From the NCBI GenBank assembly GCA_032718475.1, contig JAUCBJ010001408.1, positions 22,022 to 86,021 on the forward strand: DNA of 64,000 bases, given 5' to 3'. Shown in pieces: positions 8,367-53,085 of this stretch (position 1 is its first letter; each line of letters starts with the position of its first letter). This stretch comes from Nemertoderma westbladi. Lineage: Eukaryota; Animalia; Xenacoelomorpha. A program made the translations under genes and the position numbers. The notes under the pieces are model-generated. The model did no database searches and was not told the origin of the DNA. It saw only the letters and a program-made list of their open reading frames with translations.

Positions 8367-8739
8367 CTGTTAGGAAATATTATTAATTGAAATTGTTTAT
8401 TAAATTCTGTAAATCCTCTGCCCACATCTGATCAGTGGTTGGGTTGGAGTTCTCTAGGGAAATCATTAAACGCCGGCATTTCGACCCAACATTTAGAGCA
8501 ATTAAATACTAACTATATTACGTCGTTGCTAATAAAATAGCACATTATAGCGTTACGGCACGAGTGATTTTGTGTAGTGAAATAATAAAACGAGGGCCGT
8601 AAAAGATTTAATGTGGTGGAATTATTTGTAGTTTTGCACTTAAACTTTCTAGAACAACCTAATAATGACGCGGTGACATACTGGATATACTGAAATACAT
8701 AGTAAATGTATGGCGTAGGGACATACTGAGAAATAATGT

Positions 8740-10967: not shown

Positions 10968-10975
10968 CCGCTCCA
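10968..10975 (-). promoter_or_regulatory. Short polypurine tract (TGGAGCGG) abutting the 3' LTR
   Basis: The same GGAGCGG lies at the equivalent position in BEL-B (39756-39762). Confidence 0.65.
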
Positions 10976-11666: not shown

Positions 11667-14600
11667 TTATCGCTTAGTAGATCGAGCCCTGCCGCGTCCT
11701 CGAAAACTGCGCACAGGTGACTTTGCTCGCGATATGGGACTTGTGGGGCGAGTCACTGGTTTACTTGGGACGTTGAGAGACGGTGCGACTATTTCCTCAC
11801 AAATTCGTCTATTTGGCATCCCAAAACCTCGACCGATTCCTCGTGACCGATCAGTTGTCGCTACAGTTGGTAGAACGTCTGGGAACGCGCGAGAAGCGGA
11901 CGACGCAGACCCAAGAGTAGCTTGCGCCCCCTGTTGATCAGCTGGTGTATGTCCCGATCCTCCTACTGGTTCTCTTGGAAGTGATACCGTATCCCGAGTA
12001 ACTTGAATAGTCGGCTCAACTCCCTTGCGTTCTTCTACATTAATAATTTTCTTTAATTGTTGGCCCACTTTCTGGACCCGTATGATCCTACCCTGTCCGT
12101 CCTCCCGAGGGTGACATGCAGACGGCGCAACCGGAGTGGCTGGTATATTCGTCGCCTCTAGGACCTCCTCTTCCTCGAATACGCTCGCTCGTATACGTTT
12201 GTGGTAAAACGCGGCTCGGTACGCCCATGCGACGGTTAACCAAGCTCCTTTATTCCGCTTTTCGGTTCGGAAACGATCAAATTCACCATACGTGATACGA
12301 TTTACGACTTTCTGAAAATTCCACGTGTTTTTGTTATCTGGGTGAATCTGTAACAGATACTCGCGCACCACTCGGAATCCGCTGTCGTGGGGCAAAATAT
12401 CGACAACCTCGATAAGTTCGTCATACTGGGGCATAGCGGAGATGTATCCTTTCGACATCATCGTCTGGGGATTTACCGCCCAAAATCCGAGATGCGCTCT
12501 CATCGGAAACCGTCTTCTTTGTGCCGATACATGTTCGTCGGCTAAATCTTCCCACTCATCAAATAACTTCCTCACGAGTTTTACAGATTCGTGTTCATAA
12601 GGTATGTCTCTTAGTTGGCATTCAGATGCTCGATGTCCCTTTATATTGCAATAAGTACATTGAGCCATAAATCTCCAGCAAGTATAAAAGGTATGAGACC
12701 CTTGATCCCCACACCATCCACAGATTAGCTGAGTCGTAGTAATGTGCTTTCCACTGCACTTTGTCATATGATGTCCAGCGACGCCACATTTACTACACAT
12801 CGTATTAGCAGGGTACCACACTCGTTCGTATATAAGATCTCCAATCGGTCGAGCGCTTCCTCCCATACTATAATCGTAATCATCTGGGTCTATGGGTTGG
12901 TAGGTTTCTGAAGGTTGTATACAAACTATAGCATCTGTTGCTTCAAGTTGTCGAATCTCCGTCTGAGATTTCTTTGGGAGGTTCCTTTCTATCTCAAGAA
13001 GTTCCTCTAAAGGATCGTCGGCGATCGTAGTAGTTACTTCGAATTCATCACCAAGGTGACCGATAGGCGCGCGCGTCTGCCGTGATTCATCCGTAATTTC
13101 CACGATACGTTCTCCTTCATAGGGTAACAATGTAAACATAGATGGTCTTTCGATAAGAGATCCCGCACAGCAAAGATACACGTCTCGAAATATACTAAAT
13201 CCTGCTCGAGTAAAGGCATTACACTGAGCGTCGGAGTTGTAGAAGGGTTCAAGGAATCGTCTAAAAACGTCGGTACGAATTCTCCCTTCCATGTAGAACG
13301 TATGATCTTCTCCGAGACAAAGTGGATGTCTTTTGAGAGTCCGAGACACAATGTCGGCGATTAAGCAAACATTCACTGACGACTCTATTGCTAAATAATA
13401 TTGTAAGACCGCTCTTGGAGGTGACGTAATAGCCCAATACACGCATCCTCTCCATTTAAGCTGTGATTCAAACTCACTCATATCTGGAGTATCACCTTCT
13501 CCATAAGTTTCAATATACTTGTTTCTCTTATTTTCCTTATAATCCCAATTGAATAACAGGTAGGAAATGTATCCAGTTCCAGTCTTCTGAGTATTATACT
13601 CACGAAAATATCCCTGTTCTATAGACCACAGAATAAGAGGTCGAGTGTCGACGTATGGTGTCGGTAGTCGGTCATCGCTGTCCGTCATGCCGGCGAAGTC
13701 GCTAATTAAATCCTCCCTTACTCCTGATCCAACCTTTACAACAGTTTTATCTAAAATCATGTTTCTTACCATCTTCGGTAACATTCTAGCGTCGATATTA
13801 CAAGCTTGGTCCATCTTCTTTACTATGTCGGTGATAAGATGGTGTCGCTTTGTATTCGCTGGAGGTATCGGCATTCGTTTGTCGCTCCTCTGTCTACTGA
13901 AAACGTGCAGGACTCCGTCCGCCGCTCTAATTTGTATAGTCTTAGAAGTCAAACTCTGCTGATGACTGCCTCCCTCGTTATCGTAAAACATGTAACCGTT
14001 TTCCTGAAACGATCTAAACGTCCTAGTCCATTCATCCAACAATTCTTCCGAAGGTTGCCAAATCTTCTCTATATCCTTATCATCTTCGAAACGAATAACC
14101 TTACCTCGCCAATCTGCGGCAATATCTGTATCCGACTCGAAGGTTCCGGTTCCAATCCATAAACGAATCGTCTTGGTTAGATATCCTTTCAGATTACTCG
14201 GAGCTATATCGGCACCAGCTCTATCCAGTTCCTTGAAATCTTGAATATGAGGTGGAACGTTGTACACGACCTTTTGAGTAATATGTCTACGTAAATCATA
14301 TATCTTACTCATATCGCTGAAAACAACTGCAGGAAGAAACTCCAAGTTTGAAATGATTTCTGGATGATCCACGATGGGTATTTCGTACGTCGTATCCTGT
14401 CGGACTGGTATACTAATAGGAAAATTGAGTGTCGTACTCAATGGTTTCGTAGTTGAAGTACTATACGGTTGCATTTCTCTTGTCCTTTCCGGGGATGCAA
14501 TCTGTAGTCTCTGAATAACGTTTTGAGCAAAGTTTATGCTCTCGAAAACTTCCGGTGTCATCTCCTTAGCTGGAGTTTGATCGTGTGACGTCCAATGGCA

Positions 14601-15392
14601 AGGTAGGCTCGCGAGTCTTCCACCCCATTCTTCCATCTCACCTTTCTCGAAAGCCTTGTAGGCTCTGTATAGGCTAAGAGCTTCTTTCTTTTCGCGGGTT
14701 GACTGATTTGCCTCGTCCAGCGTAAGTTCAAATACATCGGGTTCAACAACCTTAGGTGGGTAAATGACAGTTTCTCCCGCCTTTGGTCCGGTCATAGCAA
14801 ATGAATGATATGGATTCGATAAAGGATACCCTCCTTCCTGGTAGCGTAGTTGTTGATGGTTCGAACACCTCACCAATATCGGTTCGGGATTTTCCTTATT
14901 CAAACGCATTGGAATCGCATTTCGTTGTTCGCGCATACAAGAACCGCATTGATAATAAAGTTTATAAACTGAAAATGCTTCCTTGGTTTCTCTATCGTCC
15001 CTTCGAGTTCGTCTGTAAAGATGCATTCCATCAAATTCATCTCTTACCGCGGGCATAGGTTCGTGCGCCTTTAGGTATTGCATGGTATGATACAAACGAC
15101 TAATTTCAGTATTGGGGTCTTCGCTAATGTCTCCCGTATCACACAAAGCGTCGTACGGGTACAGTTCATTGAAGGTTTGACACAAACTTTCGATTCTTTC
15201 GTTTAATGCGTTTTGTCTTCTCTTTAATACGTTCGAGTCATATTTAGTTCTCGCGAGTTTCGCTGTACTTTCCGATAATTCTTTTATACCAAATATAGTG
15301 TAGTCCTTGGCTCCAAATCTTTCGAATGGCGCTGCTGCCTCCTCTTGAATATCATATCCCCATCTCGGCTCTCCTTGTGTCCCTTTCTCCAT
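11667..15392 (-). CDS. BEL-A accessory ORF2 (1241 aa): DEDDy-type 3'-5' exonuclease domain plus three CCHC zinc knuckles
   Basis: ExoI FYDNEG..KTIQIR (~13930-14000). ExoII LPKMVRNMILDKTVVKVGSGVRED (~13705-13780). YVDTRPL. ExoIII W..SP...LQYYLAIE (~13380-13440). Knuckles CSKCGVAGHHMTKC, CGWCGDQGSHTFYTC, CTYCNIKGHRASEC (~12620-12800). No signal peptide or TM segment seen. Confidence 0.8.
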   Translation of the reverse strand: MEKGTQGEPRWGYDIQEEAAAPFERFGAKDYTIFGIKELSESTAKLARTKYDSNVLKRRQNALNERIESLCQTFNELYPYDALCDTGDISEDPNTEISRLYHTMQYLKAHEPMPAVRDEFDGMHLYRRTRRDDRETKEAFSVYKLYYQCGSCMREQRNAIPMRLNKENPEPILVRCSNHQQLRYQEGGYPLSNPYHSFAMTGPKAGETVIYPPKVVEPDVFELTLDEANQSTREKKEALSLYRAYKAFEKGEMEEWGGRLASLPCHWTSHDQTPAKEMTPEVFESINFAQNVIQRLQIASPERTREMQPYSTSTTKPLSTTLNFPISIPVRQDTTYEIPIVDHPEIISNLEFLPAVVFSDMSKIYDLRRHITQKVVYNVPPHIQDFKELDRAGADIAPSNLKGYLTKTIRLWIGTGTFESDTDIAADWRGKVIRFEDDKDIEKIWQPSEELLDEWTRTFRSFQENGYMFYDNEGGSHQQSLTSKTIQIRAADGVLHVFSRQRSDKRMPIPPANTKRHHLITDIVKKMDQACNIDARMLPKMVRNMILDKTVVKVGSGVREDLISDFAGMTDSDDRLPTPYVDTRPLILWSIEQGYFREYNTQKTGTGYISYLLFNWDYKENKRNKYIETYGEGDTPDMSEFESQLKWRGCVYWAITSPPRAVLQYYLAIESSVNVCLIADIVSRTLKRHPLCLGEDHTFYMEGRIRTDVFRRFLEPFYNSDAQCNAFTRAGFSIFRDVYLCCAGSLIERPSMFTLLPYEGERIVEITDESRQTRAPIGHLGDEFEVTTTIADDPLEELLEIERNLPKKSQTEIRQLEATDAIVCIQPSETYQPIDPDDYDYSMGGSARPIGDLIYERVWYPANTMCSKCGVAGHHMTKCSGKHITTTQLICGWCGDQGSHTFYTCWRFMAQCTYCNIKGHRASECQLRDIPYEHESVKLVRKLFDEWEDLADEHVSAQRRRFPMRAHLGFWAVNPQTMMSKGYISAMPQYDELIEVVDILPHDSGFRVVREYLLQIHPDNKNTWNFQKVVNRITYGEFDRFRTEKRNKGAWLTVAWAYRAAFYHKRIRASVFEEEEVLEATNIPATPVAPSACHPREDGQGRIIRVQKVGQQLKKIINVEERKGVEPTIQVTRDTVSLPREPVGGSGHTPADQQGAQATLGSASSASRAFPDVLPTVATTDRSRGIGRGFGMPNRRICEEIVAPSLNVPSKPVTRPTSPISRAKSPVRSFRGRGRARSTKR

Positions 15393-16050
15393 AATTAGGG
15401 TGTAGTTACATAATCATTACTACTAGAGGGAATACAACAGAGTTTGTAGTTAGTTGTGAGGAGACGTGAGAGTTTCGTCTGCCCTTTGGGCTTCAACAAC
15501 GCTCTAACCTCCTATCCATAGCCTAAGATCTAGGGTTTCTTTAATGACACGCTGCTTCTTATCTAAAATTTTTTGCCGAAGTAAAAACGAATTTGGGCTA
15601 AACTGGCCGTGAGACTAAAATACTCACCTTTTGATCCCAAACTATTATCAGAAAATAAGCAGTCAAGAATTAGTAATAAATATAGGGGAGTCTATTTTGA
15701 CGTAACTTATTGAAACAAGACCGTGTAAAATTTAATTAAAATTTTAAGAAAGGCTCGCAAGTCTTCCTCTCTTGTTTCTCTAATTTTAAGTTCCACCCGA
15801 CTGTACCCTGAAATCTATTCACTGGAGAAAATTTTAAAAATTTTCAAATCCAAATGGATTGTCTAAAATTTCGAAAATGTCTCAATATTGTGAGTTCCAA
15901 GTAGAATTCCATTTCTTATACCTACAAATCCCGCTCCTATGTGACACATAAGGGTACTACCCTCAATGTTCACATATAAAGACAATGGAATTCTACCGCT
16001 GTCCTTACTACGGTGTACAGGTACGTGGAAATCTATTTGTAAACTCCTAA

Positions 16051-18342
16051 TTATTTACTAGTATTAGGTGGAGATTTGTAGTCTCCAGACTCGTTACGAG
16101 TCTCTTCAAGAAGTACGAGACGTTGAGTCGGTCTGTCTACTGTACGACCGTCAATTGTCCGTACCGTCACAGTTCTTGTCACTCCATCCATAGATGGATG
16201 TGTGGCTAAAATTACACCTGTTATCCAGAAGCGTCTTTTTAGATTCACTTCCGCTAACAGCACGTGATCTCCCGGCTTTAATGCCCGGGTGTTATTGTAC
16301 CAAGTTGTTCTGGCAGAAATAGAGGGCAAATAATGGTTTTGCCATACTTCCCAGAATTTGTTAGCCAGTAGTTGCGTGATTTTCCACGCTTTTCTACCGT
16401 AGCTGTCGCTTTCTGTTGGAATAGAAATTGGCGTCAAAGTGGTCGGTGCCTGCATTAACAGGTGTGCCGGTGTCAAAGCAAACTGAGATTGTTTGTCATC
16501 GGGTACTAATACTATTGGTCTAGTATTTAGTATTGCCTCGATTTCAACAAACAATGTTGTCAGTTGGTCGTCTGTCAGTATGTGGTTTACTGGAATGACC
16601 TTTGCCATGGCTGTCTTTATAGATCTAATCAATCTCTCCCAGACTCCACCTCTCCAAGGACTATCTGGAGGATTAAACTTCCAAACAATCTTGTGAGGTT
16701 GTAGTTCGTTCGAGATTTGATCATGATCTAATTTCTTAAAGGCTCTAGCAATCTCATTCCGAGCACCAACAAAGTTTGTCCCTTGGTCTGAGTACAAGCA
16801 TTTTACTAGTCCGCATCTAGCGATAAATCGCCGCAGTGCTAGTATAAACGCGTTGGTGGAAAGATCCATCACACGTTCAATGTGAACTGCCCTACTGGAC
16901 ATACATGTGAAAATCAGTCCCCAGCGTTTTACTAGTATACGTCCACGTTTCGTATGTATGGGACCAAAGCAATCAATACCAGTCTCTGTAAAAGGTGGTC
17001 TGAATGCTTGAAGTCGTGCTTGTGGTAGTTCACTCAATTCCTGGGTACCTATTCTAGAATGTACCTTTTTACAAATAATACACGTACGTGTCACTGAACT
17101 TAATGCTTTACTGGGTCTAATTAATACAAATCTTATACGTAAGTAGGAAAGACAGTGGTGTCTTCCAGCGTGTTTCAGATGTAAATGTGCGTCCAGTATC
17201 ATTGCACGTTGTAGTTCGTGATGTTGCGGTATTATTATTGGGTACCTAAAGTTCGTGTTAAAGTCAATGTTTTGAAGCCGAGATTTATGACAAATTAAGC
17301 CATTATAAATAATCGGACTCCAACTCAGTATTGGTGACGACTTGATTGGTTGACCTTGATTTATGGATGTGAATTCGCGCGCGAAATATCGCAGTTGGTA
17401 ATGGCGAATTAATTTAATCTCACACCTGTCAATCTCAGCCAATGTAAGTCGACGTGTAAAGTCACGTTTGCCTTTAACGTATTGTACGAAACGTACAATC
17501 CACGCTAACTTTCGGCAAGCGTTTGACCAAGAGTCTGTTAAGTTTACAATCCGGTCGACGTGAGTATTGGTGACGTCATCAGGTAAGTCAATGGAGATTT
17601 TGGAAGGTTTTGAATTACTAGAAGGGCCCACGGGTCCGCCGGTAAGTATTCCCTTGTTGACTGTTGATCCGTCCGGGTCTACAAGTAATTTGTCCTTCTT
17701 CGTCTTCTTACCTTGATTGTCAGTACTTTGTAAGTCGATCGTTAATGGTGGTTTGAACTCTATGGGATCAGTGGGTTTCGGTAAACTTATTTTTCTGCCG
17801 ATATTAATCCCAGGTTTCACCATAGGTTGCAAGTTCGGTATGTCTCTTGAGCGCAAAGTAACACCTGTATTTACATTAGCGTAGGTACTACCCACATCTG
17901 TAATACATGAGGTTTCACCGTGCTTATGGTTGCTCAAGTGTGTCAAAATTGGTAGTTTGTCAATACAAGGCCGCTCCAATAGGGAAACTGCGGCTTTACT
18001 GTTAGTCGATACATTACTAATGTCCGGTAGAACATTTTGTGATGTTTCTGACAAAATGTCTAGTCGACTGTCTAGTAATGTGTCTGGCGATACGTCTGGT
18101 AACGTATCTGGTTGTTTGTCAATAGAAGGCCGCTCCAATAGGGAAACTGCGGCTTTACTGTTAGTCGGTGTGTTACTAGCGTCTGGTAGAATGTCTGGTT
18201 GACCGTCTAGTAACGTGTCTGGTTGACCATCTGGCGATATGTCTGGTGTAGAAAGGCTCGCAAGTCTTCCTCTCTTGACCTTTGAAGTTATCGCTTGTGT
18301 CCTTCTGGGCTCCTCCCCGAGGCGCACCCACGAGGCGGACAC
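16051..18342 (-). CDS. pol: BEL-A integrase-containing ORF (low-complexity linker plus HHCC and DDE integrase)
   Basis: HLHLKHAG...CIICKK, GIDCFGP, SDQGTNFVGA, GGVWERLIRSIK, LNTRP, LTPAHLL. The true start is unknown. Confidence 0.92.
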   Translation of the reverse strand: MSASWVRLGEEPRRTQAITSKVKRGRLASLSTPDISPDGQPDTLLDGQPDILPDASNTPTNSKAAVSLLERPSIDKQPDTLPDVSPDTLLDSRLDILSETSQNVLPDISNVSTNSKAAVSLLERPCIDKLPILTHLSNHKHGETSCITDVGSTYANVNTGVTLRSRDIPNLQPMVKPGINIGRKISLPKPTDPIEFKPPLTIDLQSTDNQGKKTKKDKLLVDPDGSTVNKGILTGGPVGPSSNSKPSKISIDLPDDVTNTHVDRIVNLTDSWSNACRKLAWIVRFVQYVKGKRDFTRRLTLAEIDRCEIKLIRHYQLRYFAREFTSINQGQPIKSSPILSWSPIIYNGLICHKSRLQNIDFNTNFRYPIIIPQHHELQRAMILDAHLHLKHAGRHHCLSYLRIRFVLIRPSKALSSVTRTCIICKKVHSRIGTQELSELPQARLQAFRPPFTETGIDCFGPIHTKRGRILVKRWGLIFTCMSSRAVHIERVMDLSTNAFILALRRFIARCGLVKCLYSDQGTNFVGARNEIARAFKKLDHDQISNELQPHKIVWKFNPPDSPWRGGVWERLIRSIKTAMAKVIPVNHILTDDQLTTLFVEIEAILNTRPIVLVPDDKQSQFALTPAHLLMQAPTTLTPISIPTESDSYGRKAWKITQLLANKFWEVWQNHYLPSISARTTWYNNTRALKPGDHVLLAEVNLKRRFWITGVILATHPSMDGVTRTVTVRTIDGRTVDRPTQRLVLLEETRNESGDYKSPPNTSK

Positions 18343-19498
18343 CTTTCCACCACCCCTGGGGCCAGTCCAACAGATGTTATCATCAGACCGGGCCGGAGGG
18401 TGGCCTGATGCTTCCCGGGTTCTGTTTTCGGTCCCCCGATCACACCAGCACAGCTCGTCGAACGTGTAGCCAGATGGGCGGCTACTGTCAACTTACTGTG
18501 GCCTGACTGTACATTGAGCCAACTCAAAGTATAACAAAGAGTCAACCGGCAGGTGGACCAGTCGATAGCGATCGAGCACCAAGGTCGCCCTTGGGCCTAA
18601 CCGACGGTCTTGTCCCAAGCGGGCTTGCGCTACCCAACATGGAATATTGACACGTTTTCACCTGCCTCGCCGGCAATATTGAGGGGACACCGTTCCTCAA
18701 CAATATTGACTAGCTCGAAAGCTAGGAACAAGTAACCACTTACCCGTCCTGTACACGTGTACTCAACAGATGTTCACGAAATCAAGTACACTACGGTAAA
18801 CACAAAATCTGACACATACCATGCACACACAGAGGACATAATCGGGTAAAGACAAAATCGGGGTCAAAATCGGGAAAGACAAATCAGAGGGGACAAAATT
18901 GTATCGACCAAGCACCAAGTCGAGAGTACCTTATTTTGCCGTCAGGGCAAAATAACTTTGTGTGCACAAAGTATGCTGGGGCGCAGTAAAGTATGGTCCT
19001 ACTAATACCAGCGGCGTCTTGTCCAACTGGCAAGGGTTCCCATACCCACTCGCAGTGGCCACACATACAATCACGTGTACTCACGTACCCACAGCAACAG
19101 AAAACTCAAGACCCGACGGTTTATTCCAATGCCACCAAAGACCAAGTCAGCTGAACATGGAGACAATAACATATAGTATCAAAAAAACGGAACAGCTGAC
19201 GGTCAATGGAACCATCCAAGCCCCAAGCAAACTGCCACTGATCGCCCACATACAAAACATAGTCCACGCCACATGAGCCACAAATCACGCCATGCCACCA
19301 CCCCTACTGTGTACAGGACTGGCAGTACGGCAACAGGCCGACTAGACGGTACCACGGCACCATGGCAATTCATGGTTCGTTAGACACGAGGGCCATCAGT
19401 ATCTCCCTTGCACTTAGGCGAAGAGATTTAACGTGCCCCCAGACCCTCACGAGTCCGCCGCCGCCTGTTAAAGACACCCCTATAGAGACCTCACCTCT

Positions 19499-20398
19499 TT
19501 AGGTATCTTTCCATTTCGCCTTCGGTTTTTTCTTGAGTTTTGCCACCGTCGTCCTTTTCTTCGCCTTCCCCTTTTTTGGTTTCTTGATTTCAGCGTCCTT
19601 AGGGATGGTGTTAGACTTGTTGTCGTATAACGGCGGCCAATGTAGTGTTGAACCTTGTAAGAATTGTGGTCCGTGTTGCCAAAATTCTTTGTTCTCCGGT
19701 TTACAGAATTCCTCAGGCATCATTCCTCGCGACGCAATATCAGCTGGGTTTTGTGGTCCGGGACAATGTCGCCAATCCTCTTTTATTGAACGGTCTAGAA
19801 TTTCCGCGCGACGGTTAGCTACGAATGTCTTGAATTCTAGTGTGTCGTTGTTTATGTAAAATAAAACCAACGTCGCGTCAGTCCAATAAAATATCTGTAA
19901 ACTTGACTGTAGTTCCGTCTGTATGAGGTTCACAATGGTGGTTGACAGTGTTGCGGCTTGTAGCTCAGCTCGTGGTGTCGTCATATACTTAGTAGGCATG
20001 GTCTTAGCCTTAGAAGTAATGAGCGAAACATCGAACTCGTCTGAGTCTACTTGTCTGCGCAAGTACGCTGCCACACCAAAACCGTTGTCACTGGCGTCAG
20101 AAAAACAGTGCAATTCCAAGTTGTCAGGAAATGTACTTTGTAATGGAAAGTAAACCCTGGGTATGAAATAATCCTCTAACGAAGATAATTCCGCCTCCCA
20201 GGTCTTCCATAAGTCCACTTGGTCTGATGAGATCGGCTCGTCCCATGTTAGTCCATCCTTCCATATACTGCGCATATAAATGCGGGCTTGCAGTATCACT
20301 GGACTGATGAATCCTAACGGATCGAACAATCGGCTCAATTTTGACAAGCATGATCTCTTTGTCAGTATGTTCTCTTGACTGTCCAGTCTCACTTTCAC
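19499..20398 (-). CDS. pol: BEL-A RT-connection/RNase H segment, in frame with gag-pol after a TGA
   Basis: TKRSCLSKLSRLFDPLG, LHCFSDAS, PRAELQAA, YWTDATLVL, FVANR, WRHCPGPQNPADIASRG, WQHGPQFL. Confidence 0.92.
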   Translation of the reverse strand: MKVRLDSQENILTKRSCLSKLSRLFDPLGFISPVILQARIYMRSIWKDGLTWDEPISSDQVDLWKTWEAELSSLEDYFIPRVYFPLQSTFPDNLELHCFSDASDNGFGVAAYLRRQVDSDEFDVSLITSKAKTMPTKYMTTPRAELQAATLSTTIVNLIQTELQSSLQIFYWTDATLVLFYINNDTLEFKTFVANRRAEILDRSIKEDWRHCPGPQNPADIASRGMMPEEFCKPENKEFWQHGPQFLQGSTLHWPPLYDNKSNTIPKDAEIKKPKKGKAKKRTTVAKLKKKPKAKWKDT

Positions 20399-23300
20399 TC
20401 AAAAGTTGTCTGTGTTTGGGTCCCAAAAGAGCCCCAACACCTTAGTCGTCGGTAGTGGTTCGAACTCTAGGTCTATGTCACCACCTCCACGCTCAGTAGT
20501 CCCGAATGAGTCTACTAATTCGGCACTGTTTGAGGCGAATTTGGTGAGGTTAAAACCTCCGCCCGCTAAGCAGTCCCGTAATTGATGTGCTACTGTGTCG
20601 CAACTCTGTAAACCGTCGTCTACATAAAAGTCACGTTCTACGATTTTAATTATCTCTGGGTCATATAGATGTTTCTGATCCCTAGCGGCCTGCTTTAGGG
20701 CGTACATCGTGCAATTTGGGCTGTCTCTGGCACCGAAAACGCGAACTTGCATTTGGTAAGTCGCTGGTGGTAGACTTAAGTCTCCTTCCGGGTACCAGAG
20801 GAACCGCAAACTGTCTCTGTCTCGCTCTAACGCTCTCACTTGGTGAAACATCGCTTCAACGTCACAAGTAAAAGCTACTTGACGCTGACGGAAGCGCATA
20901 ATCACCCCCATAAGATAATTATTCATGTTTGGTCCATCCATCAACTTACTATTGAGGGACATTCCCTCAAACAGAGCCGCACAGTCATTGACTACGCGTA
21001 CTTTATCTGGTTTGTCGGGGTGTCTCACATAGTGATGTGGCAAGTAATAGGTTTGGTCAGTCACTATCTCCGGGTTAGTCATTCGGATAGCATATCCCTT
21101 AGTCAAATACGTCTCCATCTGAGTGTTGTACTGCAGATGGGCTTTCTCGTCCTTTAATAGACGTTGCCGTATTGAGTGTAGACGTCTCAAAGCCAGTGGA
21201 TAGTTGTTTATAAGTTTAGGACTTTGGCTACGCCATAACATCCCTACCTCATAATGTCCGTCTTTCGTCTGGCGGATAGTATCTTCCATGATCTTCAGAG
21301 ATTGTTTCTCCTGTTCCGACATACAAGGTTCGTAGCTACCAGGTTCAGCTGTATCTTGTTCTAACCACCTGATAGTCTTCTCCGTTAATTCTTTGTCCAG
21401 TGCAGCTTGTTCCACTTGATGAATTTTCAACGCGTCATCATCGATATCGACGGGCACTGTTGAGGTTATTGGGGTAGGTAGACTCGCAAGCCTATCATCT
21501 GTCGTCGATGGAATCTCTAGCTGACTCGTCTTCTCCCCAAGTTTTAAACTCACCTGGTGGGTTAGCTGCTCCTTGTGACTTATCATACTAGTTACATGTC
21601 TGTCATGTTTTGTCGACTGTAGCGTAGTATGGTTCACGTCGTGTGAAAAGGAATGAATTGAATTTGTAGTTAATAAACTACATGTACTCTGTACATCGAC
21701 TTCCTCGTCACTTACGTCTAGTGTGCGCACAGGCGCTCGAGTATACCACCCTATCGGCGTTCTGCAGGCGTATGCGTTTCCCGCTACAACTGCCGATGGT
21801 CTGGTTTCCCACACCTGATGTAGGTTGAATTGGTCTGTCCCGATCAGCATTGCTACCGATCTATAATTGACAGGACATTCGGGTACACCAAGGTGTCTGA
21901 AATACTTACGGTCCTCTAGAGATTGTTCCGGCACTGGACCTAGTAGGTTACTAAAGTCCTTCGTAGCCGCAAAGGTTAGATCTTTAAAGGGCAACAAAGA
22001 CCTCTCCCTCTCGCTGTGTTGCGATTTCGGAAGAAGAGAGTCTAAGTCTAACTTAACTCGTGTCACTGGTATTGCACGCTGTCCGTGCATACTACTTACT
22101 GTATAACTGACCTGCTTACCTTGTCTGAGATCCGTCACGACGTCAGCTATCTTTTCATCCACGTAACTGTGAGATGAGGCTGAATCTAGAATCGCGTAGA
22201 TCCTCTTACTCCCCTTTGTGCCAGTGATCTTAATCGGGATTACACTGAATCCCTTCAGTTGGTCAGTGGTCAGAAGCGCGATCGACGGTTGTTCGTCTCC
22301 ATTGGAATATTCGTCGTCGTCTTCTGATTCTTCGTCCGACGATCCGGATTGTTCTGAGAAGCAATCCTCAATATGGGTCACGAAGGTTGGAGTCGTTTTC
22401 GATTCTCGTTTCCTGTAGGCCGCATCACATCTTGCTGCTGCTTCCGGGTGTTCCCTGGCGAAGCGTTTCGTCGGCGTGTGGCTGTCTGTGTGGAGCAGAC
22501 CGTCGTGGTTGCGTCCACAGGATGGACAAGTGTCGGTATTTGGGCAATCTTTACGGACGTGTCCGTGTCGCGTACACCGCCAACAAGAGTCCAGTGGCCG
22601 TATCTGCAGCTGTCGTTCTTCCGAGTTCAACTCGCGAAATTGTCGACAACCTCGTAACTTGTGACCGATATACCGCTTGCCTAGATGCTCGCAGTATTGG
22701 CAGCCGCTGAAGTCGGTACTGAGTTGTTGTCTCGTCTGTTTTGTCCCAATGGGCGCAGATACCCTACTACCGTCGGAGAATTGTCGGGTTTCAGTCGATG
22801 TGGTGTAAGTGGCCGTCTTAGTGGATGTTGTCTGGGGTTTTTGTCGGTTGGAGGATGGCAATGTGATTCCTTCTGCCACGATGTGCTGGTCGGTGTAGTT
22901 AGATCTAGTTTCTACTACTGCCTCCCTGTATATTAAAAGGTACACATCTTCTAATTTTAAGAATCCTCCCCGCTCTTCTCGCTGGTATTCGACCTTTCTC
23001 CACTCCCGACAAAGTCGATGGTGGAGTCGTCCTATGATCTTTAATAGGACTGTAGGGGTATTCCCGTAATCAAGTTGTCCAATGGATCGTAAAGTAGTGA
23101 TAGCGTTCTTGATTTCGTCGGCCAGTTTTAATAAGTCGACGGGTTTAGTGATAGCCCCTCCCTTACAGAGTTCCTCTATTACTGACCTGGCCATACTAAC
23201 TGTACCTCCGTATATCGAAGTTAAACGATCGTACGCTAGTTCGAAAGCGTCTGGTACACCAACGAAGGTCTCTGCCAAACGTTTAGGTTCTCCTGACAAC

Positions 23301-25912
23301 GTTTGGAGCAGGTAATTGAACTTCTCCCGTGATGTAAAGGCGCACACGGCGATCTGGGATTCGATATAGTCTACGAAGGTATGCCAGTGTTTTGAGCTAC
23401 CGGAAAACTTCGGTGGTTGTTGTACCGGCAATCCCTGTCTGGCTGCGAATTTTGCTATCTCCTCAGCAACGTTCAGAGTTTCGCGTCCTTGGTTGGTACA
23501 CTGGTTGATGTTCTCCCTTCTTGGCGCTTTTCCCTGATACGATGTGGGGTTTGAAGGTACCGGTCTTTGTGGTGCCTTCGGGTGTCTATTGTGTTCGAAT
23601 TCGGTGTTCCTCGAACTATCGGTTTGAACTTCCTCCAGACGCTCCTCGATCTGAGCCAACTTGTTGACAACTGGTCGCAGAATGTCGGCGAACTGTTGTG
23701 TACTAATTGCGTCCGTTGGTTGTAACGCCTTCTGTGTTGGTGTATTCTGTGGAGGATTGTCTGCAAAGGAGTTGTCTGAATGCTCGCGTTTATATTCATC
23801 GGCCGCCCCTGTTCTAAATACCTCGCGTTTCGGGTAATCCGATTCGCTCGAAGTACTATTATCATCTGGATATGGTGGTCGACGTGCTCGCGTCCGTTGC
23901 GTCGTACTAATTCTAACGGTTCGTTTCGGAACATCGTCTCGCTTTCGTTGTTCGGTAGGCTCACAAGTCTTCCTCGAAGTCGTAGATTGCGATGTAAACT
24001 GGTTGAGCGGTCGCGTATCCACTGTTCTCCGTTGTTCGGTAGGCTCACAAGTCTTCCTCGAAGTCGTAGATTGCGATGTAAACTGAACCGGTGGTCGGAT
24101 GACCGCGTTTGAATCCAAAGGCCTTGTAGGTCGAAACGTCATTGGGTAAGCGTAGTGTGTAACGGGTTTAGGTGTCAAAGGTGGACTCACCTGTTTAGTC
24201 GTCAGTAGTGCAGGTCCAGTCAACAAACTACTACGATCTGTAATCGGCGGGTTACTTACCTTGACTTTCGGAATAGGCGACGACGTTGCTCTTGGCGGTG
24301 TAAACTTGTCCGGAATAACAAACCTGTGTTCCGTCGCACCATGGATAGGAGAAATATCACTACTACCCGCAATCGAAACAGGTTCCTTAGTCGTAACCGG
24401 TGCAAACATATGCGTTACCTGTGGGAATCGTTGACACACGTCTTTTACTAATTGTCGTTCCCGTCCGGGTGCTCCTACACTTCCTTCTTTCTTCCGTTCC
24501 TGAATTTGGCGATGTCTTACCTCTAACTGGTCCAAATCATGTCCGTCACGAGATCTCATCGATCGATCGCGGGCCTTTTGATCCAAATCTTCCTCGGCGT
24601 TCGCTAATTCTCTCGCCTTCTTCTCGAGTTCGAAATGAAGTTTAGCTGTCTTCTCTCGTTGTTCCGTTTGTTGTCGTTGCGCCTCAAACTCCGCTTGTCG
24701 TATAGCGGATTGAGCTTTTATTTGCCGTGTTTTCATTTCGGCCCGCGCTTCCGAAACTAACCTTTCTCGTTCTAATTCTGCCGCTGCCGTTTGTCGCTCT
24801 AGTTCGGCCGCTGCGTTTTGTCGCTCCAACTCAGCCGCTGCGTTTCGTCGCTCTAACTCGGCCGCTGCCGCTTGTCGTTCCAACTCAGCCGCTGCCGCTG
24901 CCGCTTGTCTGGCAATGTCTACTTCTAACCTTTCTACTTCAGCTGCTTCTAATTCAGCTTGTTCCTGTAGATGAGAGATTCTTGCTATATTCGCAACGCG
25001 TAGCTTCTCTTCCTCTACTGCTGCCTGCATCACTAGAAGTTGAGCTTGTTCTTCCATTTCTTGTCGTTGTCGGTGGAATTCTTGCTGTTGTCGAGCAACT
25101 TCTGACGTGACTATACTTCCCTCGCAGATTTCGCTACGAATACTTACCAACGATTGGTCCAGTATTCCCGGTGCCGATTCAATTCGTACGGGTGAAATTT
25201 CCCTCGTATATTCCGGCACGGTTTCCCAATCTCCGACGTCTTCGCCGCACATACGTAAGTGGTCCGTCAGGTGTTTCAATTGTCCATCAAGTCGGTACAG
25301 TTCCTGTTCTTCCTCGGGCTGTAATAATTCGTCCGAAACTGATTCACCTAACAACTGGTCCGCTTGTTCCTGTTGTATCTGTCTAATCGTCGACTTAAAC
25401 TGAATCAGTTTCTCTCTAGCGATCATCAGTTTCTCGAGGATTCTAAGTTGAGTATCCATGTCCTGTCTCTGTCTAGCTAGATCTTGTAGACCAATTAGGT
25501 TATCTACGGACTTGTGTACTCTACTTTGTACTCTAACCTGGAGGGTGTAGAACTCGAATCGAGACATCGGAGTGGTCAACTCGTCTAATATGCGTTGGCC
25601 TTCCCCAATACTCCTGGTTATATGCGCCATGTAACCACCGACGCTTCTAATCACACTTTCTGTGCTTCCTGCTGAACTTACCATTTCCGTTTCCCTGTAT
25701 CTAGGTTGCGGAACAGTTAGAAAGTCCTCGGTCCTGCCGTCGCCTCGTACTATGGCATCCGGTACTCCCGTTGGATGTACTGGTGACGCACACGGTGTAG
25801 GTTCGGTAGGCTCGCGAGTCTTCCCCTGTTGTTCTTCCGCTGCTGACTTATCTCCATCACATAAGTCATAGTCGGTTTGTGTATTCTTCGTATAGTCTTG
25901 TTTGTCACTCAT
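20399..25912 (-). CDS. gag-pol: BEL-A Gag-protease-RT polyprotein (1837 aa, ends at an in-frame TGA)
   Basis: Coiled-coil N-terminus. Gag PKFSG..W..F, EKFNYL. Three Cys/His motifs ending CPSCGRNHDGLLH. Protease ILDSASSHSY. RT YYLPHH, DVEAMFHQV, FYVDD. Confidence 0.95.
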   Translation of the reverse strand: MSDKQDYTKNTQTDYDLCDGDKSAAEEQQGKTREPTEPTPCASPVHPTGVPDAIVRGDGRTEDFLTVPQPRYRETEMVSSAGSTESVIRSVGGYMAHITRSIGEGQRILDELTTPMSRFEFYTLQVRVQSRVHKSVDNLIGLQDLARQRQDMDTQLRILEKLMIAREKLIQFKSTIRQIQQEQADQLLGESVSDELLQPEEEQELYRLDGQLKHLTDHLRMCGEDVGDWETVPEYTREISPVRIESAPGILDQSLVSIRSEICEGSIVTSEVARQQQEFHRQRQEMEEQAQLLVMQAAVEEEKLRVANIARISHLQEQAELEAAEVERLEVDIARQAAAAAAELERQAAAAELERRNAAAELERQNAAAELERQTAAAELERERLVSEARAEMKTRQIKAQSAIRQAEFEAQRQQTEQREKTAKLHFELEKKARELANAEEDLDQKARDRSMRSRDGHDLDQLEVRHRQIQERKKEGSVGAPGRERQLVKDVCQRFPQVTHMFAPVTTKEPVSIAGSSDISPIHGATEHRFVIPDKFTPPRATSSPIPKVKVSNPPITDRSSLLTGPALLTTKQVSPPLTPKPVTHYAYPMTFRPTRPLDSNAVIRPPVQFTSQSTTSRKTCEPTEQRRTVDTRPLNQFTSQSTTSRKTCEPTEQRKRDDVPKRTVRISTTQRTRARRPPYPDDNSTSSESDYPKREVFRTGAADEYKREHSDNSFADNPPQNTPTQKALQPTDAISTQQFADILRPVVNKLAQIEERLEEVQTDSSRNTEFEHNRHPKAPQRPVPSNPTSYQGKAPRRENINQCTNQGRETLNVAEEIAKFAARQGLPVQQPPKFSGSSKHWHTFVDYIESQIAVCAFTSREKFNYLLQTLSGEPKRLAETFVGVPDAFELAYDRLTSIYGGTVSMARSVIEELCKGGAITKPVDLLKLADEIKNAITTLRSIGQLDYGNTPTVLLKIIGRLHHRLCREWRKVEYQREERGGFLKLEDVYLLIYREAVVETRSNYTDQHIVAEGITLPSSNRQKPQTTSTKTATYTTSTETRQFSDGSRVSAPIGTKQTRQQLSTDFSGCQYCEHLGKRYIGHKLRGCRQFRELNSEERQLQIRPLDSCWRCTRHGHVRKDCPNTDTCPSCGRNHDGLLHTDSHTPTKRFAREHPEAAARCDAAYRKRESKTTPTFVTHIEDCFSEQSGSSDEESEDDDEYSNGDEQPSIALLTTDQLKGFSVIPIKITGTKGSKRIYAILDSASSHSYVDEKIADVVTDLRQGKQVSYTVSSMHGQRAIPVTRVKLDLDSLLPKSQHSERERSLLPFKDLTFAATKDFSNLLGPVPEQSLEDRKYFRHLGVPECPVNYRSVAMLIGTDQFNLHQVWETRPSAVVAGNAYACRTPIGWYTRAPVRTLDVSDEEVDVQSTCSLLTTNSIHSFSHDVNHTTLQSTKHDRHVTSMISHKEQLTHQVSLKLGEKTSQLEIPSTTDDRLASLPTPITSTVPVDIDDDALKIHQVEQAALDKELTEKTIRWLEQDTAEPGSYEPCMSEQEKQSLKIMEDTIRQTKDGHYEVGMLWRSQSPKLINNYPLALRRLHSIRQRLLKDEKAHLQYNTQMETYLTKGYAIRMTNPEIVTDQTYYLPHHYVRHPDKPDKVRVVNDCAALFEGMSLNSKLMDGPNMNNYLMGVIMRFRQRQVAFTCDVEAMFHQVRALERDRDSLRFLWYPEGDLSLPPATYQMQVRVFGARDSPNCTMYALKQAARDQKHLYDPEIIKIVERDFYVDDGLQSCDTVAHQLRDCLAGGGFNLTKFASNSAELVDSFGTTERGGGDIDLEFEPLPTTKVLGLFWDPNTDNF

Positions 25913-26711
25913 TTCGGTAGTTGTAAGTCAAGTAAAGTGAGTGTCAAAGTATCGAGTTTACCGTATTTATATCTAAACGGTACTAATTACAGTCTTATAA
26001 AATTAGCCTACCGGCCGATTTTATAGCAGATGGATAAAATTAGCCTAAACGGCCAATTTTACAGCAAATAAATGTCACGGAATAAGTATATAATAAAATT
26101 AGCCTAGTGGCCAATTTTATAACAAATAAATCGGATAACGATATGCGTTATCAAAAAGGTAAATTAAATACAATAATACGGACTAATTCAGCAATGAACA
26201 AAGAAATCATACGGAATGCATAAATACTTGAGACAGTGGAACCCACAATAATTTTAACTAATACGGTAATGCCTAACTTATTTATGCAACTTTTCGAACT
26301 CACCCACTCCAATAATTCTCCAGAAAAACAGATTCCCAGATACAAACCGGACGTGAACCTTTCCGTTTTCAGCGTTGCGGACGAAGCGCGATTTTCCCAA
26401 CCAAAGTAGTTGGGTTATCTATCTCCCAAACTTGCTAAACACGGTCTTGCTCCCGTTACAGTCTAGAAATGAGTCCTGAATCCTGAAAAACAAAAGAGTT
26501 AGGTTTTACTTTACGAAAAATTTTGTACCGGTACAATATGGTATTTAAACCCTTTTAAACACCGGTATTCAATTCCAAAATATTTTACGCGCGGTTCAAA
26601 TCAAATTTTATTTCAAAAAATTAGCACTTAGCTAATCAAATACGAACTTTTACCTCAAAATACAAAATTTTCAAAATAACTTTAGTCCTACCGAACCGTA
26701 GTTCAGTAAAA

Positions 26712-26722
26712 CATATTCCTAC
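26712..26722 (-). promoter_or_regulatory. Non-tRNA primer-binding site of BEL-A (GTAGGAATATG), complementary to LTR-internal 27754-27764
   Basis: No TGG-initiated PBS. The 11 nt abutting the LTR are the exact reverse complement of 27754-27764 and 9772-9782. Confidence 0.75.
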
Positions 26723-28607
26723 TATTCGAAGAGACGGTAACAATACCTGCAATATCCTACTGTAAAGTTTGTAAATCAATTCATAAATCCGACCTTCTCA
26801 CCAAAACAGTAAACTCTAAGTAAACGAATATATTGCAGTATCGATCTCTTATAACCGGTGAGGCAGAAAACAGTCTACGAGCAGACAAACTTCGATGAAA
26901 CAAAATCCCGCACAGCAAATCCTAAAATCAGGCTGACTCACTGACGGACTAAGGGGCTCGTATACTTTGCCGCGGTGTGATTTATATGGTTTGGGCAAAA
27001 GGGACGCTAGCTAGGTACAGAGGCAGATATTTGGAGATGTCTAACTAGCGAGCAAAGTGCAGTAAGGACGAAAGTTAATTTTATATATTTTGAGGTGTAA
27101 ATAATTTCTAACGCGCGCGTGTCAATTCTGAACGGTCAAAGCAGTTTTGCTCCTTCACATATATAATTACTGGGTACGGTGTGCATTTTACGAATATTCT
27201 AATTTTATAACTTGTAGGTCCAATACTCACGAATGATAAGGTTCCTTCCCCTCTTGCGTATTTCCAGGACTCAAATTCAGGCATAAGGTTAGTACTACGC
27301 CCAGAATTCGGCAATTTTAGGTACCAGGTCCCTGATACTAAGAAGAGATGTGTTAGTTTACTACTGTAGGCGTACGGGTACTAATAGCTATCCTGGCTCC
27401 TATCAAGAATTTTAGTCACCCAGGTAGTCCGGGTAACTTCCTATTAGGGCGTTGGCGGGGACACGGTAGATGTTAGTATATCCCTGATAGCCTCAATTTA
27501 TTTGCGCCTAGTACGTAAACTGCCCTACCGCCTGAACGGTACAATCCCAATTCAGGTGAAAACACAGCAACCCCCCTAGCCTACAAGTTCTAATACAATG
27601 GACACTGTCGTACGGCAAATAGTCACAGACGCACCTGTACTTAGCAAGAGTTAAGCGTACAGTTTGCTGCACCCTAACCAATGTGTATGCCTTGTACCGG
27701 TGTGCCTACATCCTATCTGCGTACTAGTATCTGCCTGCGCTCTCCCTCCCCCCGTAGGAATATGAAGGTCTACTGCGGTTTTTCCTGAATCAAGACAGTA
27801 CAGTCCCTATGATGTAATTTTAGGCTTGCAGCGTGTCACTACGTCTACCTTTTGATCTTTTGGTCTTACACTTAGGTAGCAAGGATCGAACGCTGTCTAA
27901 CCTTTCAGGCGATGGGCGAATAACTCTAGATGGTATTTCGGGTTGTCTCTCGTCTACATTCCCGTGATGTTCCCGTTCATTGCTGCGGCCCGATCTCTAG
28001 CCGGCCATCCTGTCCCTTAAGTTTGTTCACCGTAGTGAATCCATGATAAAACAGATAGAAAAGGGCTGAGTTTGACAAATATTTCTTACTTTTATTACAA
28101 ATCAAACAGATAAGATAATAAAGTCTCATTAGTACAGATTGAAGAAGTAGTAGGTTGATAAGAAGTGAACTAATGAACGAAATCGCACCTTTATATACCG
28201 AATTTGTGCCGCAATCAATCGAGAAAATTCTCGATTGTTCTACAGGTTCTAACGGGGTTTTAAAGATAGCTATTGGTCCAGCTAATATATAACTTGCACG
28301 ACATTGGTTACAATCAAATAACTACAGTCTCATTGGTACAGATAAATGCAATTAATTTGTAGCGGTTAATTTAAACGAGTTGAAATTCTGTACAAAAAAT
28401 AATTCGCACTTACTAGGATTCGAACTCAATACCTACTACACATATAATTTCCAACGCTCTACCGACTGAGCTACTGAACCACTTGACCGATAGATGTACA
28501 AATGATAGAACCAATACGAATGAGAACTCAAAGCAATCTTTACAAAGTTAATTCGAATAAAATAGAAATTTTGAAAATCCACGGCATTTAGGGAATATAA
28601 TTCTATA
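26723..28607 (-). repeat. BEL-A 5' LTR (1885 bp), termini TATAGAA...CGAATA
   Basis: Direct repeat of 8740-10967. Candidate TATATAAA near 28190 and AATAAA near 28093 on the minus strand. Confidence 0.97.
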
Positions 28608-28830
28608 AATGTCGCACTGCGATATAAAGTTAGGAAATATGTCGCCCTGGCGATTTGGTAGTGCGAAATTAATTCCACACAAATAAATAAAAACATAATA
28701 ATAAAACAGAAGGACTTCAACACGGCAAATAATTATGTTACAAATAATTACTGGTTAAGAAACTAACATCGTTCTTTAGCTCATTATTTACATCGACTTG
28801 GTTAGTTAGGTTTGTATTTAAATATTTTAC

Positions 28831-38800: not shown

Positions 38801-39072
38801 TCACTATCAGATATTTCGCCCTCTAGCGGCAGATGGGGGGACTGTATACAACTCTGCGACTCCGTAAAGGTACAGCCTATGCTGTAGTAGATGCCTACCA
38901 AGTTTCAGTCTAAACCGTTTGTAAATAACAAAGTTGTAGAAGATGTTAACTTTCAGACATTTCACCCTCTAGTGGTAGACTGGGGAAGTGAATAGGATTC
39001 TGCAACCCCGTAAAGATACAGCCTATGATGTAGTAGATACCAACCAAGTTTCAGCTCAAAATGATTAAAAAG

Positions 39073-42818: not shown

Positions 42819-45800
42819 TTAAGTTGGGGAGTCCCTAGATGTCGGTTGGATTAGGGAAGTGGTCGTGGGAAGAGTTTCTTGTCTTCCATAGTTTCCGCAG
42901 AGCTCTCTGTCTCTTTCCAGTAAACATAAACGACCCACTGGGCGATTGAGCTGTTGAGTCTCAAAGACTATCCCTGGTTTCTTAAAGTTCCGCCGCATGA
43001 CGACGAGCTCTACTGATCTCACCAAACCATCGCTCGAGATATAAGTCTCGATGATACGTCCTGTTTGCCATCGCTTACGTGGGAGATCGGGGTCCACAAT
43101 AAGCACCATGTCTCCAGCGCTGACGTTTTGTTGCTGCGCAAACCACTTAGTTCGAAGTTGTAGAGTGGGCAGGTAATGTTTCTCGAAATGGTCAGCGAAA
43201 CGACGGGATAGCAACTGCATAAGTTGCCAGGTTCGACGACAGTACTCGTCTCCGTCTGTGATCTCCGATCGTGGGAGCATGGCTACGGGCTTCTTCAGTA
43301 GAAAGTGCGCGGGTGTTAGCGCTTCCAGGGAATCCGGATTCGAAGAGACTGGCATAAGCGGTCTTTCGTTGAGATAGGCGGCGATTTCCTCCATTAACGT
43401 CCGCAATAATTCGTCGGTGAGATAAGCGCAACAAGGCACAATAAAGTGGAACGCAGTCTTCACGCTCCTAATCAATCTCTCCCAACTTCCTCCCCACCAA
43501 GGGGCGTCGGCGGCGTTGAAGGTCCAGCTAGACGCTGTTATCCTTAGCTGATCGTCCACCTGTCTTATGTTCCAGTCCTTTACGTAAGCTTGAATTTCGT
43601 TATTGGCGCCAATAAAGTTCGTTCCCTTATCCGATCTCATCGTGTTACTGGTTCCGAAGCGAGCGATCTGTCGTCGTAAACTCAACACGAAGCTGTTGGT
43701 GGATAGATCGTTTACCATATCGAGATGGATAGCTCTACAAGTCATACAAACGAAGATGACACACCATCTCTTGACTATAGTCCGGGCACGATATACTTCA
43801 ATAGGACCAAATAAATCCACACCGGTATTAGTAAAGGGTGGTTCATAGAAGCTTACTCTTTCCCTAGGTAATTCTGCCTCTCGCTGTGTTAAAGGCCTAC
43901 TGAATGCTTTCCTACAGGGTATGCAGTTCCTAAGAACTTGGTTCAGATCCCTACGAGGTTTATAAAAATAGTAGCGAGTTCGAATTTCGCTCAGAACTCG
44001 TTCTCTACCAGCATGATACAGTTTGCTATGAACATCTACAATTATCTTGATTTGTATGTCAAGATTTCTAATAAGTATGGGAAACTTAGTGTCAAAGGAT
44101 AATGGGGCGTTTGTTAGTCGACCACCAACACGTATTAACCCATCTATCATGGTACTAGAGAAGCGATCCCTTAAGCGCATCTGTGGATTTCTTAACAACA
44201 GGAAATACTTATCGGAATCCTCATAACATTGTAGGAGTCTCAGCATCTGTTTGTTGGTTTCATCATGCTCATGGTAACTGATCTTCTCTTTTAGAAACCG
44301 GTCGGATATCTTGTATTTAGGAAGATCTTTAACAACATGGACTCGTGCAGATGTTGATGGAGCCTCATCACTATTGACCTTTGTCCCGGAGTAACGATGA
44401 TGAAAACATCGTTTCAAATAAGTAACAGCTTTACAGAGCCGATTCCAGGAGCTGTAGTGACGTATCGCTCTCTGCAAGAGAGGTGAGAGTCCTTGCGTGA
44501 TATCTGGTATTCCAGATTTCCAATCCTTGTCACGGATTTCCAAGACTTCTTTGGTCGTGGCGGTGGGTTTCTGATCCAAAGCATCCTCTCCGGAAGTAAA
44601 TAATACAGATAGATCAACCGCAGATTTAAACAACTTCGATTTACTCGCTCGAGTTTTGGGTTTAACTTTCTCCGCTCCCTTGGCCTGTCTGATCTCTGCT
44701 GTTGTGAGGTGGGGAGGCCATTCTTCTTCTTCTTGGTAGAGAAAGTTGGGTCCTCCTAACCATTCGGGAGTATTTACCAACTCCTTTGGAGTCGCTCCTC
44801 GGGAAGCGATGTCTGCTGGATTAATCGTTCCGGGGCAATGTCTCCATTGGTCCATCGTCGTGCGACTAAGTATGATGGCTACTCTGTTGGTAACGAAGAC
44901 GCTGAACTGACAGACTTCATTGGTTATATACTCTAACACGAGTAAAGCGTCGGTCCAATAGACAGTTTTCTCTAATGGATAGTCAATCTGTTCTGTTACA
45001 TTCCGGCCGATGGCTGTAGCGTATAGAGCCGCCTTTAACTCCGCTCGAGGAACTTTCAACTTGTTGTTGATTAATGCCTTAGAAGTAACCAAGGCGACTT
45101 TGATTCCATCCGGAGTTTCCACTCTTAGGTAGGCTACTATACCTATTCCCATATCGCTGGCGTCTCCAAACACATGGAGTTGATAGGAATACGTAGGGAG
45201 AACATGACCAAAATATGAACGGGAAATTATAAAATCTTCGATCGCCGGTAGAGAATCTTCCCATTTCATCCACTTCTTTAATAATTCTCCCTTAAGTGGA
45301 TCGTCCCATGAGTGGTTTTCAAGCCACATTTGTTGTACCAAACTACGAGCAATCAATATAACTGGGCTAATAAATCCCAATGGATCGAAATAAGTGCTCA
45401 GTATACTTAAGCAAATCCGTTTGGTTCGCACTGGATTATCTCGCTGTTTTAGTTGGAAAAACAGGATATCTCTCTCTGTGTCCCATTTCAAGCCGAGTGT
45501 CTTGGTTTCTGGCAGATCATCTTTGATCAAATCGAGGTCTTTCGCTCCTCGATCCTCCGCAGGAATCGACTCCAGAAACTCACGGGAGTTGCTGGTGAAT
45601 TTCGTTAATCGAAACCCACCTCTTTTTAAGCACTCTACCGTTCCTTTAGCGACCTCAATGGCTTCCTCAACTGATGGAAGGGACTTCAGATTGTCGTCCA
45701 TGTATATGTCTCGCTTGATGTTGTCGATCACTTCCTTAGAGAAGGCCTCTCGGTTGTCCTCTGCAGTGGTACGCACTACTGAACAGGCGTTGGAAGGGCT

Positions 45801-52790: not shown

Positions 52791-53072
52791 TCTGTACAAT
52801 CTGATCAGGTTTACACGCCTTCTGTTCAATACTGGCCTACAAACAAATAAAACTTGACAGAGATAAGTAAAAATCTCAATAAAAAACCAGGGCTGCAGTC
52901 CCTGATTAATTATTAAGGCCTACCGGTATACAACTATCAAAATCGAATAATACTGCTGTACTTATACGGAAGTACCGGTTCTTGCAGTTGGGCCTACTGA
53001 CCTACAGATGTACCGTTCAGGTTTACCGGTTGACCGGTACTTTCAACTTTATTGCTTACTGCAATAAAGAAG

Positions 53073-53085
53073 ATATATCCTTTAA
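53073..53085 (-). promoter_or_regulatory. Non-tRNA primer-binding site of BEL-B (TTAAAGGATATAT), complementary to LTR-internal 53850-53862
   Basis: Exact 13-nt inverted match, abutting a TGTTCG that resembles the BEL-A U5 end TATTCG. Confidence 0.7.

Follow-up and report, generated by a model that had tools for sequence, protein, structure and literature searches.

Which RNA primes reverse transcription of BEL-A, an LTR retroelement of Nemertoderma westbladi? LTR retroelements are defined in part by how they are primed, and a reading made from the letters alone (the sequence-only reading) proposed that the primer-binding site (PBS) of this element pairs with a stretch of its own LTR. We examined this proposal in the 64,000-nt stretch of DNA that carries the element (the window) and among related elements from metagenomes.

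BEL-A is a BEL/Pao element

Elements of the BEL/Pao group (Belpaoviridae) are marked by a BEL-type Gag, a Pao RNase H region, DUF5641, and the order Gag-PR-RT-RH-IN, as well as by an LTR pair, a target duplication of 4-6 bp, and a polypurine tract. The following features define BEL-A.

28608..28612, minus strand: target-site duplication ACATT, 5' copy (LTR flank comparison; empty-site contigs)
26723..28607, minus strand: 5' LTR, 1885 nt, termini TAT...ATA (self-comparison)
16051..25927, minus strand: gag-pol with DUF1759, protease, RT, Peptidase_A17/RNase H, integrase, and DUF5641 (Pfam and motifs)
11667..15413, minus strand: extra 1248-codon ORF between the integrase and the 3' LTR (three zinc-knuckle-like motifs)
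10968..10974, minus strand: polypurine tract GGAGCGG, common to BEL-A and BEL-B (internal side of the BEL-A 3' LTR)
8740..10967, minus strand: 3' LTR (self-comparison)
8735..8739, minus strand: target-site duplication ACATT, 3' copy (LTR flank comparison)

Pfam finds DUF1759, Peptidase_A17, and DUF5641 above cut-off, and likewise in BEL-B, a second element of the window. A scan with motif patterns typical of protease, RT, RNase H, and integrase finds all four in the BEL order Gag-PR-RT-RH-IN. With its LTR pair, 5-bp target duplication, and polypurine tract, BEL-A has the further features that BEL/Pao requires. The element is young: the 3' LTR differs from the 5' LTR by 8 substitutions, a 342-nt insertion, and one extra G, the last two in the 3' copy. 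Both LTR ends are fixed by the divergence of the two LTR copies and by ACATT on either flank, and the empty target site is represented by contigs that join at 28608. TG...CA termini are usual for LTR elements. Those of BEL-A are TAT...ATA instead, despite the clean 5-bp duplication, and the LTRs of two relatives described below (L015 and L064) begin TG and end TATA.

A stop at 20401-20399 interrupts the gag-pol frame, and between 19499 and 17322 some 2.2 kb of pol has no alignment to BEL-B. The extra 1248-codon ORF has one atlas match at 0.79 and three weak library matches, two of which are zinc-knuckle proteins; it has no envelope family match and almost no homologues. The 342-nt insertion (10445-10786, minus strand) lies inside a B-box-like motif and has a 12-nt target duplication. 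An ORF for a fibrinogen C-domain (7677-8369, minus strand) is located just outside the 3' LTR. Rfam produces only three weak matches over the LTR, all far under the gathering score, and in one sequencing run (X4) positions 28201-28560 are far deeper than the rest of the LTR.

The primer-binding site pairs with the LTR

26712..26722, minus strand: PBS GTAGGAATATG, no TGG, no spacer to the LTR (sequence search; LTR end)
27754..27764, minus strand: candidate self-primer CATATTCCTAC in the 5' LTR (exact complement of the PBS)
9772..9782, minus strand: the same 11-mer in the 3' LTR (sequence search)

The sequence-only reading held that the PBS follows the 5' LTR directly, lacks TGG, and is the exact complement of an LTR 11-mer that is followed by a purine run. 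Each of these statements is borne out. The PBS begins at the first base past the LTR, its complement occurs only at 27764-27754 and 9782-9772, and the purine run is present. No other match to the PBS complement was found in the window when up to one mismatch was allowed. The chance of such a match had been put at about 5e-4. The match is indeed rare, but the figure is closer to 1e-3 and thus slightly weaker: the 11-mer appears in 5 of 5000 dinucleotide-shuffled BEL-A LTRs, and in 16 of 5000 when the start may slip by 0-3 nt. Across the interior of BEL-A, pairing of 11 nt or more is reached at 12 of 15,676 positions.

A published criterion for self-primers calls for complementarity of at least 10 bp to the element's own LTR, starting 0-5 nt past the LTR (PMC6317226, in the part available). 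The BEL-A PBS has 11 bp at offset 0, and it lacks the TGG within a few bases of the LTR that characterizes tRNA-primed sites. The lack of TGG rules out an intact tRNA 3' end as the primer. A tRNA-like stretch with A- and B-box-like motifs is present in U3 (28404-28498, minus strand). It was rejected as a primer source: the 11-mer lies elsewhere, and ARAGORN calls the stretch only at a relaxed threshold, not at its default.

The match could also be a coincidence. The LTR is long, and 9 of 500 shuffles reach 11 nt once slipped starts and spliced joins are permitted. Against this, BEL-A has no TGG site to offer as an alternative, and the comparisons with BEL-B and with more distant elements, presented below, bear on the same point. 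Pairing does not extend significantly upstream of the 11-mer (432 of 2000 shuffles do as well), and among 40 of the 150 variants listed for BEL-A's own family there is no compensatory change. A primer built across a splice junction was considered for BEL-A itself and rejected, the best being 9 nt, which 21 of 200 shuffles match. Contigs of two runs contain the LTR end and 9 nt of the PBS and then continue into other sequence, at 26714.

Transcript signals and RNA folding

28190..28197, minus strand: TATA box TATATAAA, with a start predicted near 28170 from the motif (motif scan)
28091..28096, minus strand: second AATAAA, upstream of the primer and one base from the predicted donor, which the model described below must skip (motif)
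27785..28089, minus strand: predicted 305-nt intron (AAAA/GTAAGA ... TTGATTCAG/G), ending 20 nt before the 11-mer (motifs)
27497..27502, minus strand: AATAAA some 250 nt past the primer end, a predicted poly(A) signal that the model requires (motif)

Whether the primer would be the capped end of the transcript or an internal segment depends on where transcription begins. The best TATA box had been placed at about 28190, some 400 nt upstream of the 11-mer, and is located at 28197-28190. Computed from motif positions, the distance between the predicted start and the primer end would be about 110 nt once the intron is removed. Contigs of the sequencing runs over the BEL-A and BEL-B regions reveal no splice joint, transcript end, or cleavage product; of these runs, X5 is presumed to be RNA.

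A transcript that instead starts at the 11-mer would have its first 10-11 nt as the primer, as in the yeast element Tf1. An initiator-like TCATATT is present at 27765 (minus strand), at the 11-mer, and splicing would be unnecessary. The BEL-A primer also equals that of Tf1 in length, at 11 nt (PMC7175516, as far as its accessible text goes). When the global fold is computed for an RNA starting at the 11-mer, 10 of the 11 pairs of the LTR-PBS helix have probabilities of 0.9-1.0, versus about 0.15 for the helix in the predicted spliced RNA. However, there is no TATA-like motif near 27795, and the TATATAAA box lies about 430 nt upstream. Folding thus favors a terminal primer, whereas the motifs, together with the relatives discussed below, favor an internal one. 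On balance, we regard a start at the 11-mer as unlikely.

Two further observations concern variation within these LTRs. At 27042-27160, T>C changes (A>G in the sense orientation) are clustered in one contig of run X4, the pattern expected if double-stranded RNA had been edited before its reverse transcription; part of this interval can pair with the leader that follows the PBS. In addition, contig depth falls over 28027-28200 of BEL-A, which includes the TATA region, and over 53762-54231 of the BEL-B LTR. These drops suggest that promoter segments vary among subfamilies.

A candidate site in BEL-B

52957..54291, minus strand: BEL-B 5' LTR, TGTA...TACA, with an inferred 3' end (sequence comparison)
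53283..53293, minus strand: candidate primer TCGAATAATAC, directly after an acceptor-like CTGTCAG (pairing scan)
52943..52953, minus strand: candidate PBS GTATTATTCGA, after a 3-nt spacer (pairing scan)
42819..50939, minus strand: BEL-B gag-pol ORF (Pfam; RT-RNase H tree)

The 11-nt pairing of the candidate BEL-B PBS with 53293-53283 is the only site of at least 11 nt in 3.35 kb under the rule used. Some site of at least 11 nt arises in 13 of 60 shuffles. None of the 60 has one with a TACA end and a GT start, a narrower rule that was picked after seeing the site. Additional pairing upstream of the candidate primer is marginal (96 of 2000 shuffles). The candidate site shows the same pattern as BEL-A, and we consider the resemblance suggestive.

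Neither read depth nor the loose ends of contigs locate the predicted LTR end at 52957. A 9-bp candidate at 51879 was discarded, as no ACA or ATA end precedes it, and a blind splice scan of BEL-B revealed nothing convincing. The element is embedded in satellite DNA (34800-39070 and 54292-64000) with 146-nt units and a higher-order period of about 2.2 kb, and its 3' LTR copy stops after 684 nt, without a target duplication.

Self-pairing is conserved among distant relatives

The best 80 of 408 confirmed stretches from a metagenome scan for relatives were kept. An LTR pair is present at 32 of these loci, with a 3' end defined by divergence in 14 and inferred in 18; the other 48 have no LTR pair and were left out of scoring. 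Manual adjustment moved the LTR end of L003 by one base and that of L015 back to the last shared base, and the ends of L038 and L040 were redefined. Scans of viral contigs produced no relative.

Conservation of the complementarity in related families was the check named in the sequence-only reading, and the pairing proves to be kept, with different letters, in 12 of the 14 scorable distant relatives, that is, those with a defined LTR end. In each of the 12, a non-TGG PBS that starts 0-4 nt past the LTR pairs over 10-15 nt with the element's own LTR. Because L038 and L040 belong to one family, this count corresponds to 11 of 13 families. Shuffled LTRs match the observed pairing length in 0-9 of 500 trials per locus. 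A PBS tested against the LTR of another element reaches 10 nt in 7 of 238 cases, compared with 14 of 16 for its own LTR. The PBSs of the 11 families differ from that of BEL-A at 3-7 of the first 10 bases and begin with GT in nine families and AT in two. The GT start, the length of 11 nt, and the absence of a spacer are common to BEL-A and to L022, L039, and L077, which also argues against coincidence.

The pairing is contiguous in 4 of the 12 loci (L032, L064, L073, and L077). In the other eight (L003, L006, L013, L015, L022, L038, L039, and L040), it exists only across a GT-AG junction. A primer that spans such a junction requires an upstream exon and therefore cannot be the cap end of the RNA, in contrast to what a Tf1-type start would predict. 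L077 is informative in the same respect. This contig has a 5' LTR end that bears the acceptor and an intron-free 3' LTR that carries the joined primer, and in the intron-free LTR the primer begins about 120 nt past the TATA box. The two L077 LTR versions (1-340 and 6690-7103) are 88% identical over their shared part, and the contig may be a chimera of two subfamilies. For the three relatives with a TATA-like box ahead of the primer or donor (L077, L038, and L015), the calculated distance between predicted start and primer end, allowing for splicing, is about 105-145 nt. In 10 of the 11 families, an A[AT]TAAA hexamer follows the primer end at a distance of 6-97 nt.

Loci with an inferred LTR end behave similarly: 12 of the 18 have a site of at least 11 nt (0-1 of 30 shuffles), two of which repeat families already counted. 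The remaining six have no site under rules restricted to Watson-Crick pairs. For one of these six, L047 (727-1170), an 18-pair spliced duplex of primer and PBS that includes two G-U pairs was found by eye.

Three loci (L053, L072, and L076) have a TGG PBS, and the two that were scored pair with their own LTR over 4 nt. The L076 PBS is perfectly complementary to the final 12 nt of tRNA-Met(CAU) (sequence from a supplement of PMC13524379).

The helix between LTR and PBS might be conserved for a structural or regulatory role, for example as a splicing-dependent switch, with synthesis started by a tRNA fragment or by a second transcript. Half-tRNA priming is known in copia elements (PMC6317226, partial text). 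Yet the PBS varies by family, with 12 distinct 10-mers among 13 sites, and tracks the LTR rather than a fixed host RNA. Moreover, the paired strand always terminates within 0-4 nt of the LTR end, the point at which minus-strand synthesis has to begin. We therefore judge a helix without a priming function to be quite improbable. That the BEL-A feature is a real and conserved self-pairing PBS is well supported.

Phylogenetic placement

In a tree of RT-RNase H sequences, BEL-A and BEL-B are sisters (98/89). Their closest homologues are about 40-43% identical in this region; those that are named belong chiefly to sea urchins, cnidarians, a mussel, and fish. A single branch (99/99; the starred branch) separates the 21 self-pairing loci of the tree from the rest. 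BEL-A, on a long branch, falls outside the starred clade in an open fork, as do BEL-B, the three TGG loci, and the group of L047. An AU test does not reject a tree in which BEL-A and BEL-B are constrained to group with the self-pairing loci (p 0.385), a result that demonstrates no clade.

This position, and the distance to the relatives (about 40% RT identity), count against the preferred reading given below. The long branch outside the self-pairing clade is what coincidence would allow, but the sister element BEL-B carries a candidate site of like pattern. Together with the shared start, length, and spacer noted above, this makes coincidence a very improbable explanation.

A model for internal self-priming

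No TGG site for a tRNA 3' end is present in BEL-A, and exact self-pairing is kept with changed letters in relatives; for these reasons, BEL-A likely primes with a piece of its own RNA. The sequence-only reading had raised, as an alternative to a primer at the transcript 5' end, an internally released one, and this alternative is favored by the eight relatives that pair only across a splice junction. Our preferred reading, to which we assign a probability of roughly 0.6, is that BEL-A primes reverse transcription with the 11-nt stretch of its own LTR, which would be internal in the transcript and freed by cleavage.

Transcription would begin near 28170, behind the TATA box, and the 305-nt intron would be spliced out. 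The 11-mer would then anneal to the PBS. By analogy with Tf1, the RNase H of the element would cut 3' of 27754, just past the final AC of the primer. The 3'-OH thus created at the first PBS base would serve to copy 26723-27753 into minus-strand DNA. Poly(A) addition downstream of AATAAA (27502) in the 3' LTR would give a terminal repeat of about 270 nt for strand transfer. Everything upstream of the cut, including primer and intron, would be inherited from the 3' LTR copy; thus, an LTR intron could persist or be lost cleanly.

Two requirements follow from this arrangement. A self-primer needs a 3'-OH at the base opposite the first PBS base; cleavage would accordingly be required just after 27754. 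Because the cut strips the 5' part of the RNA from the template, the 3' end of the RNA must pass the same point in the 3' LTR. The A[AT]TAAA hexamers downstream of the primer end in BEL-A and in 10 of 11 families agree with an RNA end so placed.

A broader reading, for which we consider the odds slightly better than even, is that a BEL/Pao lineage swapped tRNA primers for an internal self-primer from the leader RNA that is often built by the spliceosome, with BEL-A as a deep-branching member whose primer is ready-made. The homologues within its scope are named from cnidarians, echinoderms, molluscs, and fish.

Relation to known systems

The primer of Tf1 consists of the first 11 bases of its transcript, and RNase H cuts between bases 11 and 12 (PMC7175516, available portion). 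As in Tf1, Tf2, and Tj1 of the Tf1/sushi group, an 11-nt LTR sequence of BEL-A complements a non-tRNA PBS that adjoins the LTR (PMC7175516, PMC4600332, and PMC5341516, each in excerpt). However, the Tf1/sushi elements are Ty3/gypsy chromoviruses, whereas the Pol of BEL-A belongs to BEL/Pao, another superfamily. The Tf1 primer is the cap end, whereas that of BEL-A is probably internal, as in the relatives in which it spans a splice junction. Cleavage is demonstrated for Tf1 and would occur in BEL-A by analogy. By inference, then, BEL-A works like Tf1 but is not a member of the Tf1/sushi group.

Self-priming has also been predicted for the plant elements Tcn1 (gypsy) and TAR/Houba/Osr-1 (copia), and so beyond Ty3/gypsy (PMC6317226, in part). 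The same sequence criterion describes BEL-A. Unlike BEL-A, these plant elements belong to other superfamilies, and the available part of that paper describes no splice-built primer for them. The tRNA-primed BEL/Pao loci L053, L072, and L076 share the gag-pol architecture and are about 40% identical to BEL-B in RT-RNase H, but their PBSs start with TGG.

Our literature search turned up no paper that describes self-priming in BEL/Pao; a prior description is possible in subscription journals or Repbase Reports, which lay outside its scope. Three papers (PMC554778, PMC3118150, and PMC11117352) mention neither PBS nor tRNA, and a fourth (PMC12440569) mentions neither priming nor PBS. What is new in the present findings is the probably internal, often splice-built primer.

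PBS finders that require a tRNA match would miss sites of this kind, and programs that look for TG...CA ends would miss BEL-A. Self-priming in BEL-A would also bear on the proposal that hairpin priming came before tRNA priming (PMC3601003, from the part available). If our reading is correct, a third superfamily self-primes, and does so with a primer that is internal and often splice-built. Such a route would be distinct both from tRNA priming and from the cap-end primer of Tf1, and it would depend on endonucleolytic cleavage within a long RNA. Initiation of reverse transcription would then be coupled to splicing, which would become a control point for transposition.
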